Below, piece by piece: positions 4,285 through 47,890 of a stretch of 48,586 bases of DNA. A program made the translations under genes and the position numbers. The notes beneath the pieces were generated by a model, which was given only the letters and a program-made list of their open reading frames with translations, was not told where the DNA came from and made no database searches. Numbering within the stretch: position 1 is the stretch's first letter; every line of letters starts with the position of its first letter. Source of the DNA: Bryobacterales bacterium (GTDB taxonomy: Bacteria; Acidobacteriota; Terriglobia; Bryobacterales; Bryobacteraceae); the NCBI GenBank assembly GCA_003136215.1, contig PLDO01000523.1, positions 16,708 through 65,293 of the forward strand, in the 5' to 3' direction.

Positions 4285-5895
<1,611 letters not shown>

Positions 5896-5901
5896 AGAAA
5901 T

Positions 5902-5942
5902 CCGAGCTTCGCGCGGATGCACAAGGCGGAGCCTTATGCCAC
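5902..5942 (+). repeat. Copy 1 of a 41-nt double-hairpin dispersed repeat
   Basis: CCGAGCTTCGCGCGGATGCACAAGGCGGAGCCTTATGCCAC. It fills the 49-nt gap between the convergent stop codons at 5893-5895 and 5945-5947. By hand alignment it shares 37/41 positions with copy 3 and 38/41 with copy 2. Confidence 0.85.
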
Positions 5943-5944
5943 GC

Positions 5945-6640
5945 CTACGTTCTCTCCGTGATCCGGCCGTCGCGCATGTGGACCGTGGAATCGCCGTAGG
6001 CCGCGGCCTCGGGATTGTGCGTGATCATCAGGATGGTCTGCCCCAGCCGCCGGTTCAAGTCGCGCAGCACCTCCAGGACGGCCTTGGAATTCTCCGTGTC
6101 CAGATTCCCCGTGGGCTCGTCGGCCAAAAGTATCGCCGGGTGATTGACAATCGCGCGCGCAATGGCCACACGCTGCTGCTCTCCGCCGGAGAGCGCATTT
6201 GGTTTGTGGTCCAGCCGGTCGTTGATCCCAAGCAGGCGCAGCACCTCCTCGAACTCGGGTTCCGGTTTGGCGTCCGCGCCACCGATGAAGCGCGCCACCG
6301 CGATGTTGTCCCGCGCGGTCAGGTTGGGCAGCAGGTTGAACTTCTGGAAGACGAATCCCACGGTGCGTTTGCGCATGCGCGTGCGCTCTGCGTCGGTCAT
6401 CGCGGACAGGTCTTTGTTATCCACCACGACCTTCCCCGTAGTGGGCGGCGTCAACCCGCCGATGATGTGAAAGAGGGTCGATTTCCCCGAGCCGGACGGC
6501 CCGATGATGGAAAGGAACGCACCCTTCCGGACGTTGAGGTCCACGCCGCGAAGCGCCGGCACGTCCACTTTTCCCACGCGATAGGTCTTGCACAGATCGC
6601 GGATCTGAATGATGTCGCTGGGATTCACGCCGTTACTCAT
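5945..6640 (-). CDS. ABC transporter ATP-binding protein (MacB/LolD type)
   Basis: Walker A GPSGSGKST, signature LSGGEQQRVAIARA and Walker B ILLADEPTGNLD. Its start overlaps the permease stop by 8 nt (ATGAGTAA). Confidence 0.95.
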   Translation of the reverse strand: MSNGVNPSDIIQIRDLCKTYRVGKVDVPALRGVDLNVRKGAFLSIIGPSGSGKSTLFHIIGGLTPPTTGKVVVDNKDLSAMTDAERTRMRKRTVGFVFQKFNLLPNLTARDNIAVARFIGGADAKPEPEFEEVLRLLGINDRLDHKPNALSGGEQQRVAIARAIVNHPAILLADEPTGNLDTENSKAVLEVLRDLNRRLGQTILMITHNPEAAAYGDSTVHMRDGRITERT

Positions 6641-8834: not shown

Positions 8835-8910
8835 GGGCCTGTGGCGCAGTTGGGAGCGCGCTTCCATGGCATGGAAGAGGTCGACGGTTCGAACCCGTCC
8901 AGGTCCACCA
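8835..8910 (+). tRNA. tRNA-Ala (anticodon GGC), CCA encoded
   Basis: Hand-folded cloverleaf: GGGCCTG/CAGGTCC acceptor with the G3:U70 alanine identity pair, D stem GCGC, anticodon stem CTTCC/GGAAG with loop ATGGCAT, T arm GACGG-TTCGAAC-CCGTC, then A73 and CCA. Total 76 nt. Confidence 0.93.
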
Positions 8911-18896: not shown

Positions 18897-18935
18897 CAGA
18901 CTTGACGGGACAGAATACGCCCGCGAGCAGGCGCT

Positions 18936-18953
18936 GGCAGGCTCAAGCCTGCC
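18936..18953 (+). terminator. GC hairpin 1 after the GH5 gene
   Basis: GGCAGGC-tcaa-GCCTGCC, a perfect 7-bp stem 40 nt after the stop. Confidence 0.4.
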
Positions 18954-18987
18954 CCACCAATGCTGGCACAAGACTTCCCCTTGGTGG

Positions 18988-19007
18988 CGCAGGCGATTTC
19001 GCCTGCG
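18988..19007 (+). terminator. GC hairpin 2 after the GH5 gene / in the leader of the ATPase gene
   Basis: CGCAGGCG-attt-CGCCTGCG, a perfect 8-bp stem. The flanking CCACCAA (18954-18960) and TTGGTGG (18981-18987) could form an additional stem. Confidence 0.4.
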
Positions 19008-19047
19008 AACTACTCTTCTCAGTTTCCCAGGGAGGGGTTGTCATCTA

Positions 19048-21993
<2,946 letters not shown>

Positions 21994-40081: not shown

Positions 40082-40158
40082 TGGTCGGGCTGCCGAGATT
40101 TGAACTCGGGACCTCTTGCACCCCAAGCAAGCGCGATACCAGGCTTCGCTACAGCCCG
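40082..40158 (-). tRNA. tRNA-Pro (anticodon GGG), CCA encoded
   Basis: Reverse strand: CGGGCTG-TA-GCGA-AGCCTGGTA-TCGC-G-CTTGC-TTGGGGT-GCAAG-AGGTC-CCGAG-TTCAAAT-CTCGG-CAGCCCG-A-CCA, 77 nt. C1:G72, A73 and G37 fit bacterial tRNA-Pro. Confidence 0.92.
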
Positions 40159-46896: not shown

Positions 46897-47559
46897 ATGC
46901 CGCAAAGCTCAGCACGAAGCGCACGGCCGAAACGGCCGCAGCGGGATCCGCGGGTCGCGCCATTGGCGGACGTGGCGGAACACAACTATGAATTGATTGG
47001 GGAAGTGCTCGCGGGACTTAGCGCCAGACGGGCGGGTGTGAGATTTGGCGCCAGTAAGGCGCTGCTGATATTGAGCGAGTTGGTGCCCGAGGCGCTGTAC
47101 CCGCACTTCGACTCTTTCGCGGCCATGCTGGACCACGAAAACCAGATCCTGAAATGGAATGCCATGCTCACCCTGGCCAACCTGGCGCGGGTAGATCGCG
47201 AAGGAAAGATCGAAGCCATCCTGGACCGGTACCTCGACCCCATCTCCGGGCCGGACATGATCAGCGCGGCCAATGCCATTAGCGGGGCTGTCGTCATCGG
47301 CGTGGCCAAGCCTCACCTCGTCCGCCGGATCCTGCTGCGAATCATGCGGGTGGAGTACGCGGAATATGCCACCCCGGAGTGCCGGAACGTGGCCATCGGG
47401 CACGCCCTGAAGGCGCTGGAACCGCTGGCCGACCTGCTGCCCGACCGGCGGATGCTGCGCTTGTTTGCGGCGCGCCAGTTGGGCAATCCGCGGGCGGCAA
47501 CCAGCGCCAAAGCGCGCAAATTCCTGAAGGCCCGCGGCAAACCGGCGCAGGTGGGATAA
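46897..47559 (+). CDS. Hypothetical protein, helical-repeat (HEAT/ARM-like) appearance
   Basis: 220-aa ORF with neighbour-like codon bias and repeated amphipathic helices, but no motif I can name. The start is uncertain. The last codons and the TAA stop lie inside repeat copy 3. Confidence 0.55.
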   Translation: MPQSSARSARPKRPQRDPRVAPLADVAEHNYELIGEVLAGLSARRAGVRFGASKALLILSELVPEALYPHFDSFAAMLDHENQILKWNAMLTLANLARVDREGKIEAILDRYLDPISGPDMISAANAISGAVVIGVAKPHLVRRILLRIMRVEYAEYATPECRNVAIGHALKALEPLADLLPDRRMLRLFAARQLGNPRAATSAKARKFLKARGKPAQVG

Positions 47560-47591
47560 GGCTCTGCCTTGTCCATCCGAGCGAAGCTCGG
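47551..47591 (-). repeat. Copy 3 of the 41-nt double-hairpin repeat (reverse orientation)
   Basis: The plus strand reads GTGGGATAAGGCTCTGCCTTGTCCATCCGAGCGAAGCTCGG. Its reverse complement is CCGAGCTTCGCTCGGATGGACAAGGCAGAGCCTTATCCCAC. Confidence 0.85.
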
Positions 47592-47890
47592 ACGCGATCC
47601 ACCCATGTCTCAACCGGGCAGACCGGGGGGGCAAACCAGGGCAGTATCCGCAAATCCCCATTCGCGGCCCCCACCAAACCCCAGGGCCTCGCCACCCAGA
47701 AACAGTGGTCCAACAAGGCCGCCGACGCCCTCCTCCGCAAAGCCGTAACCCAAACATCCATAAATATCCGCCCCCTGTTTCCAATCACTTACCGCCCTCC
47801 ACCCCCGAATCCCCCAAATCGCCCCTCTATCCTCAAGGTAGGACAGGCCGGGGTACCCTCTGGGTCCGCCTGTCCATTACCGGAGCCATC

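Follow-up and report, generated by a model that had tools for sequence, protein, structure and literature searches.

The locus raises the question of what a short two-hairpin element is that occurs three times in a 48,586-nucleotide stretch of DNA from a member of the Bryobacterales (contig PLDO01000523.1, assembly GCA_003136215.1; this whole stretch is hereafter the window). The preliminary description had viewed it as a 41-nt REP/BIME-like element or small structured RNA module and had counted three copies. This count is borne out: a degenerate pattern of the 41-mer has exactly three matches, at 5902-5942 (+), 20988-21028 (+) and 47551-47591 (-), i.e. three copies in 48.6 kb, and none of 100 dinucleotide-preserving shuffles of the window contains a match. 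A mismatch-tolerant Hamming scan of both strands of the window found no extra full or half copies.

The ends of the unit were defined from an alignment of 78 copies, each extended by 30 nt to either side. Conservation has abrupt limits, running from (G)T-CCGAGC to CCAC, and the flanks are unrelated; thus, the unit is 43 nt long, namely GT plus the 41 nt first described. On the opposite strand the consensus reads GTGG-GATAAGGC-TCC-GCCTTGTC-C-A-TCCGAGC-GMA-GCTCGGA-C, and shows a characteristic order: a GT[G/A]G foot is followed by a 9-bp imperfect hairpin (hairpin 2) and then by a constant 7-bp hairpin (hairpin 1, TCCGAGC/GCTCGGA, with an A/G mismatch in copy 1). Copy 1 itself, which is identical in four metagenome contigs of the same locus, reads GTGG-CATAAGGC-TCC-GCCTTGTG-C-ATCCGCGC-GAA-GCTCGGAT on the minus strand. 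GT[G/A]G placed directly before an imperfect palindrome is the signature of REPs (repetitive extragenic palindromes), short DNA repeats whose spread depends on a dedicated REP-associated tyrosine transposase (RAYT). While the foot is present by design in all 78 copies retrieved with hairpin 2 as anchor, the set anchored on hairpin 1 is unbiased for it, and here a GT[AG]G tetranucleotide (C[CT]AC on the other strand) stands at the hairpin foot in 115 of 133 copies with widely varying hairpin 2. It is conserved though unpaired. The features of the window are collected in Table 1.

Table 1. Repeat units in the window and the gene ends next to copy 1
Feature	Position	Strand	Remarks
Copy 1, C..G subtype	5900-5942	-	Fills the gap (49 nt) of a convergent gene pair
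REP core of copy 1	5915-5942	-	Foot GTGG (5942-5939) and 9-bp hairpin 2 with T·G wobble
TAA stop of family-2 glycosyltransferase gene (4285-5895)	5893-5895	+	4 nt from the hairpin-1 end of copy 1
TAG stop of ABC ATPase gene (5945-6640, minus strand)	5945-5947	-	2 nt upstream of the GTGG foot of copy 1
Copy 2, G..C subtype	20986-21028	-	In frame in the plus-strand P-type ATPase-SPFH gene 19048-21993
Copy 3, G..C subtype	47551-47593	+	Foot-first; GTG GGA TAA ends ORF 46897-47559
Related REP without hairpin 1, GTGG-GGCAGGC-TTGA-GCCTGCC	18932-18957	-	Just upstream of the ATPase gene

The preliminary description had proposed a wider search and had staked its reading on the existence of further copies; more than 190 were found beyond the window, from at least seven MAGs of Candidatus Solibacter/Bryobacterales and from numerous metagenomes of soil and peat. 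They come from two scans with different anchors. An exact-pattern scan of genomes, one per species and anchored on hairpin 2, gave at least 72 loci, and all the genome loci listed belong to 7 MAGs labelled Candidatus Solibacter sp. or Bryobacterales. A metagenome scan anchored on hairpin 1 only (GTCCGAGCTNCGCTCGGATG) gave at least 120 loci from soil, peat and similar samples; the uncultured organism from which the window comes is also present in many metagenome assemblies. Among the matches listed, the copies are numerous, dispersed and mainly extragenic, and they lie near the 3' ends of genes, as is typical of REPs.

The two adjacent hairpins originally proposed are also the predicted minimum-energy fold, both as DNA and as RNA, with z-scores of -2.4 to -5.8 relative to shuffled sequences. 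The internal C/A mismatch ascribed to hairpin 2 is there on the strand that had been read, whereas the opposite strand carries a T·G wobble at this position and is fully paired; since C/A reads as T·G there, the 9-bp stem of hairpin 2 is uninterrupted on the GTGG strand only. The compensatory change from G..C to C..G noticed in hairpin 2 of copy 1 is real, and it is one of the recurrent pair switches of the family: across 79 copies (7 MAGs plus the window) the pair is C..G in 51, G..C in 26 and mismatched in 2, and both forms occur together in four of the seven MAGs.

Each of the two scans provides an unbiased sample only for the hairpin that was not its anchor. Hairpin 2 is very diverse where hairpin 1 is fixed. 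In a set of 39 distinct sequences of the long-stem type, it shows two-sided switches at three pairs (GC/CG 18:16, AU/GC 29:8 and GC/CG 22:14) and a covariation score of 0.29-0.32 as against 0.12-0.15 for column shuffles, with none of 500 shuffles reaching the score and slid registers giving at most 0.135. Standard pairs occupy 93.7% of the cells on the GTGG strand and 83.5% on its complement, a difference due to the T·G that 34 of the 39 sequences retain; this asymmetry identifies the GTGG strand as the selected single strand. These data show that hairpin 2 is under selection and that this selection acts on the GTGG strand; the covariation itself represents a few subfamily-level events passed on to many copies and not dozens of independent ones. 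For hairpin 1, the first sample, in which the anchor fixed GGATG, part of the 3' arm, shows no excess (0.080 versus 0.075). Once copies are sampled by the hairpin-2 stem alone, hairpin-1 variants appear (GGCGAGC/GCTCGCC, CCGGGC/GCCCGG and GGCGACC/GGTCGCC), and in this broader sample without a fixed 3' arm the score is 0.174 versus 0.066 (0 of 500 shuffles); the support for covariation here is moderate and comes from few lineages. The earlier argument that the structure is under selection accordingly applies strongly to hairpin 2, and to hairpin 1 more weakly and in the broader sample only. As in REPs, the unit is a short imperfect palindrome with maintained pairing.

The position of the copies relative to genes was tabulated by taking as a coding-like gene end any open frame of at least 90 codons with strong GC3 excess, and by counting the stop-foot distance between the nucleotide that follows the stop and the initial nucleotide of the foot. 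At the foot end, coding-like genes end within 80 nt in 77 of 168 assessable copies, and for 49 of these 77 the distance is between -4 and +9, i.e. the base after the stop falls no more than 4 nt ahead of the foot and no more than 9 nt into the element. The stop directly abuts GTGG in 12 of the 49 and shares its last base with the foot in 9; the TAA within the element's own GGATAA is used as the stop in nine of them. Gene ends are rarer at the hairpin-1 end (42 of 172), where there is a small peak at 9 nt. Eight of these 42 genes reading into the hairpin-1 end have their stop exactly 9 nt before the GT (loci L001, L024, L025, L030, L039, L062 and L005/L066), and the 9-nt spacer is not conserved. 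Where a gene end lies at one side of a copy only, the copy is foot-first with respect to the upstream gene in 51 cases and hairpin-1-first in 19 (2.7:1); 16 copies lie between convergent genes, and 3 of about 196 are found within long coding-like frames, all three in frame and without a stop. Published REP families likewise lie close to gene 3' ends, provide stops through their termini and have in-frame intragenic copies (PMC3733652), and the tabulated positions as a whole agree with published REP behaviour (PMC3733652, PMC6006769). The sharp stop peak 0-2 nt before the foot, the weaker 9-nt peak at the other end and the same adjacency at the RAYT loci described below are not accounted for by simple tolerance. 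There is no motif indicative of a fixed insertion target beside the foot; only an A/T bias at -1 and -2 and a subfamily-specific CCA or TTT are seen.

The three copies in the window exemplify these contexts. As had been noticed at the outset, copy 1 fills the gap between two convergent genes; these encode a glycosyltransferase and an ABC ATPase. Two copies had been said to sit immediately at stop codons. Copy 1 lies between the TAA and the TAG of these genes; copy 3 does not merely abut a stop: the TAA of the conserved hypothetical gene 46897-47559 comes from its own GGATAA. Copy 2 is not at a stop codon and encodes VRAALGWTRRSLIP in a variable linker of ORF 19048-21993. The linker is too variable for an element-free site to be defined for this copy, the nearest homologue being 73% identical. 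The product of this 981-codon ORF is a heavy-metal-type P-type ATPase (E1-E2_ATPase and Hydrolase domains) fused to an SPFH/Band 7 (HflK-like) region; the fusion is kept in relatives, with homologues that span the junction, and JGI often labels fragments of it 'HflK protein'.

At the site of copy 3, close relatives have an element-free allele in which the upstream gene is 100% identical over the 159 residues called. There the gene ends ...CCGGCG TAG, as compared to ...CCGGCG CAG GTG GGA TAA in the window. More distant homologues also stop at the same residue, hence the three residues added in the window are derived. What separates the two alleles is a complex indel (about 205 versus 13 nt) and not a clean 43-nt insertion: the roughly 150 nt right after copy 3 (47594-47750) are also missing from the near-identical element-free allele (L220-L223), and have no other match in any repeat-bearing locus compared. 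Given this complex indel with its unique extra 150 nt, the comparison demonstrates gain or loss of the element, while transposition ends cannot be read from it.

An HUH/Y motif screen detected one HUH/Y protein among all the repeat-bearing loci compared, encoded at 5474-6004 of locus L107. It matches the Pfam Y1_Tnp model (7e-9), displays the motifs NHVH, WQ and YIEHNP, and passes the NCBIfam equivalog REP_Tyr_transpos with 89 bits against a cutoff of 80, as opposed to 27.6 bits with the IS200 model (cutoff 55). Among proteins of solved structure, E. coli TnpA-REP (PDB 4ER8) is its best relative. The gene is bracketed by three hairpin-1-bearing units, one upstream (5333-5375) and two downstream (6008-6050 and the inverted 6089-6131), such that the outer units are mutually inverted. 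Their hairpin 1 is identical to that of the family, whereas hairpin 2 is a sister variant, GGCATGC-TTCA-GCTTGCC. The locus recurs in four metagenomes (L216-L219). The protein has 3,313 homologues, many of which are named RayT by JGI or assigned to Bryobacteraceae; in seven relatives (57-64% identical) and two further ones on long contigs, the same hairpin-2 type brackets the gene in the absence of hairpin 1. All eleven RAYT homologue contexts inspected contain the GGCAAGC/GCATGCC hairpin, mostly without hairpin 1, and none contains the subtype of the window. On the long Bryobacteraceae contigs with RAYT homologues, REPs are found only at the gene, with no hairpin-1 units within 20 kb.

The hairpin-2 type linked to the RAYT and that of the window share contigs, and at L175 and L190 they are found within single tandem arrays that have a common hairpin 1. 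No RAYT was found in the 48.6-kb window or next to units of the window's own ACAAGGC subtype, and in 1.07 Mb of repeat-bearing loci a profile derived from 120 homologues recovered the L107 gene only; hence the RAYT link holds at the level of the family and is inferred for the window's subtype. The search for a RAYT/TnpA(REP)-like transposase suggested in the preliminary description yielded one such gene, with three units of the same hairpin 1 around it, though none beside the window's own subtype. In addition, identical RAYT proteins (P0006, P0017; L207-L209 and L210-L212) are found in different neighbourhoods, together with their bracketing REPs and a leader of about 95 nt, and one of these units adjoins a reverse-transcriptase gene. 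Their placements suggest that the whole REP-RAYT-REP unit moves.

The BIME-like part of the initial reading is corroborated by mosaic arrays and inverted dimers in the family. Eight tandem foot-first units at L148 4337-4775 have a changing hairpin 2 with a constant hairpin 1 and CTGYGTT linker; mixed tandem arrays are seen at L190 3864-4070 and at L175, and across the array loci the linker is constant, either CTGYGTT or 36-38 nt. These are BIME-type mosaic clusters, and the window has no such array. In all 11 inverted neighbour pairs the feet face outward, with gaps of 0-132 nt. Such pairs comprise about 22 of 199 copies (~11%), most copies, including the three in the window, being singletons; an inverted REP doublet, the replicating unit that defines REPINs, is not the unit here.

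Further repeats occur in the vicinity of the element. The repeat at 18932-18957, judged only by its resemblance, would fall in a wider superfamily with the element; a GGCAGGC-type hairpin is also joined to hairpin 1 in metagenome copies. Likewise upstream of the ATPase gene, at 18984-19013, is a 'double-foot' palindrome, GTGG-CGCAGGCG-ATTT-CGCCTGCG-AACTAC. A second family, C[ACG]GAGCCGCGACCGTNAGGGAGCG, often forms close inverted pairs (L001 5792, L013 1390/1418, L020 272/300, L030 134, L041 2982); it matches the published class 3 Y1 motif of Solibacter usitatus and was not seen in the window. Near some copies (right flanks of L002, L011 and L019; L101) is a palindromic motif, GCCGATTG(C/A)CAATCGGC, which may be another repeat module. 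Finally, a purine-rich, loosely conserved stretch, GCGGAGGA..GGAGAAAGAAGT, pyrimidine-rich on the foot-first strand, adjoins the hairpin-1 end in the left flanks of L019, L023, L037, L045, L059, L061 and L072, and may mark a subfamily in which the element is longer, or a tail under selection.

With foot and palindrome, abundance, covariation, gene context, arrays and a family-level RAYT all supporting the REP/BIME-like reading offered at the outset, the repeats are very probably a composite REP family of the Candidatus Solibacter lineage. The foot and the 9-bp hairpin would be the part recognised on single-stranded DNA by the RAYT, an HUH/Y1 enzyme, which in turn would copy or maintain the units without target duplication. 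Hairpin 1 would then be an accessory module, much as extra-REP motifs are in BIMEs. Units would persist where they are tolerated or useful, mostly right after stops and foot-first in the 3' end of the upstream mRNA, and there the two hairpins, joined in a minority of copies by a U-rich tail, probably stabilise the 3' end or terminate transcription.

The main competitor reverses the priority of these two roles: the repeats would mainly be a module acting at the level of RNA, either an intrinsic terminator or a portable stabiliser of 3' UTRs, with function in mRNA driving its spread and conservation and the RAYT association being incidental. The 51-to-19 foot-first bias relative to the upstream gene is in line with this, as are the copies that fill whole convergent-gene gaps. 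So is the sequence after hairpin 1, where in the foot-first direction at least 5 T in the next 8 nt are found in 28 of 193 copies (14.5% versus a background of 1.7%, i.e. 8-fold), as against 2 of 193 for a T-rich tail in the other direction. Nevertheless, about 85% of the copies have no clear T-run, such that the GC-rich stem followed by a U-run of a Rho-independent terminator is not the general configuration, and a simple terminator scan made no call at copy 1 or copy 3. The putative terminator-like role of copy 1 with respect to the ABC operon has partial support at the level of the family, in its T-tail enrichment. Pairing of the T·G wobble is confined to the transcribed GTGG strand, but recognition of single-stranded DNA by a Y1 enzyme predicts this asymmetry equally. 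Moreover, an RNA function leaves unaccounted for the foot that is conserved while unpaired, the RAYT gene bracketed by three units, and the near-identical units at different loci, which need a copying mechanism. We therefore regard an RNA module as the primary identity of the repeats as improbable; a secondary role of the composite REP at the RNA level, in 3'-end protection or termination when foot-first, is likely, judging from the 2.7:1 bias and the T-rich tail. An intermediate possibility combines both aspects: the composite unit of REP head, constant hairpin and pyrimidine-rich tail might be a 3'-end cassette spread by the RAYT, placed or selectively kept exactly at stops with a back-up TAA, and used by the host as a terminator or stabiliser; the stop peaks noted above would be in line with it. 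We consider this unlikely; were it true, a selfish repeat would have become a portable device of the host for ending or stabilising transcripts and, on occasion, for ending a gene anew.

Other mobile elements can be weighed in the same terms. Two adjacent hairpins lacking target duplications, in a lineage whose Solibacter members have several classes of Y1 enzymes (PMC6006769), could in principle be the left- and right-end transposase binding sites of a minimal element of the IS200/IS605 type, non-autonomous and dependent for its movement on a TnpA(IS200) and not on a RAYT. Yet neither end has the conserved tetranucleotide that such an insertion would leave, hairpin 2 occurs alone at RAYT genes, the flanking enzyme falls far below the IS200 cutoff while passing the RAYT model, and an IS200-like gene was not seen in the 1.07 Mb of loci; this origin is accordingly very doubtful. 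A MITE left behind by a DDE-type insertion sequence would also be short, dispersed, palindromic and mostly intergenic, but it should exhibit terminal inverted repeats and target-site duplications. In 193 copies flanking direct repeats equal the expectation from shuffled partners, as predicted for Y1/HUH-type mobilisation of REPs, and inverted runs in the flanks are 0 nt in 150 copies and at most 3 nt in the others; 43 nt is, furthermore, below the usual size of MITEs. Such an origin is hardly credible. CRISPR, tRNA-derived and coding-repeat readings were also rejected: the units are dispersed and single, match no tRNA model, and lie inside genes in only 3 of about 196 cases.

The conclusion that the repeats are a composite REP family leads to the question of whether this family has been described before. 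The preliminary description did not recognise it, and it is indeed unlisted: it is absent from Rfam and from the S. usitatus REPs in Table S1 of PMC6006769, and the survey of Di Nocera et al. 2013 did not cover Solibacter (PMC3733652). In Rfam searches of the window nothing relevant reached the gathering threshold, and around copy 1 no permissive match was better than E = 9. The sole hits at the gathering threshold in the window are two tRNA genes, at 8835-8907 (+) and 40085-40158 (-). The family adds a well-defined REP and a candidate RAYT to the Acidobacteria, an abundant soil phylum with few REP-RAYT descriptions. Its 43-nt signature can be used by annotators, as it explains repeat-supplied stops, 14-residue in-frame inserts and 49-nt convergent gaps in Solibacter MAGs, and its graded hairpin-2 variants on one constant hairpin are a natural data set for the co-evolution of REP hairpins and their transposases.

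A published precedent comes from the same genus-level lineage. In S. usitatus Ellin6076, the subclass 2.7 RAYT ABJ86258.1 is flanked by GTGG-footed REPs, GTGGGGCAGCCATTCCTGGCTGTC, and a second repeat, the class 3 motif CAGAGCCGCGACCGTTAGGGAGCG, has about 600 copies (Quentin et al. 2018, PMC6006769). The former resembles the GTGG-GGCAGGC hairpin at 18932-18957 of the window and the latter forms a separate family in the MAG loci; neither of these Table S1 repeats is the present element (PMC6006769). The GTAG-tagged superfamily, of which a GTGG variant is known (Opitutus terrae GTAG-20), shares with it the terminal tag, stems of 6-9 bp, in-frame intragenic copies, REPs between convergent genes within 20 bp of both ORF ends, and termini that supply stops (PMC3733652). 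In that superfamily the stop is supplied by the TAG of the tag, whereas the present family employs an in-stem TAA (GGATAA) or a stop directly before the foot. The REPINs of P. fluorescens likewise combine inverted dimers of fixed geometry with a RAYT (Bertels and Rainey 2011, PMC3116915); in contrast, only about 11% of the present copies are in dimers, and each monomer is already a two-hairpin unit.

A further comparison is with the REP/BIME system of E. coli. The E. coli REP has the sequence GTAGGCCGGATAAGGCGTTTACGCCGCATCCGGC, which is found at 40 or more places in each of 5,426 E. coli genomes. Both systems show a GT[AG]G foot and an imperfect GC-rich hairpin with a conserved non-Watson-Crick position, and both occur at gene 3' ends, between convergent genes and in mosaic clusters; moreover, E. 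coli TnpA-REP (4ER8) is the solved protein most closely related to the Y1/HUH enzyme of L107. A 9-mer, GGATAAGGC, is common to the E. coli REP (GTAGGCCGGATAAGGCG...) and the hairpin arm of the present element; this is a resemblance that may be coincidental, and is no evidence of homology. The present family differs in its mostly GTGG foot, 9-bp stem, 3-4 nt loop and acidobacterial host, and in the constant second hairpin, TCCGAGC-GNA-GCTCGGA, that accompanies about 85% of its copies. Thus, the element belongs to a well-known kind of bacterial repeat, within which it forms an unlisted family, and is no new kind of system; what sets it apart is that its second hairpin is constant, that its foot is mostly GTGG and that it is very tightly spaced with respect to stop codons.
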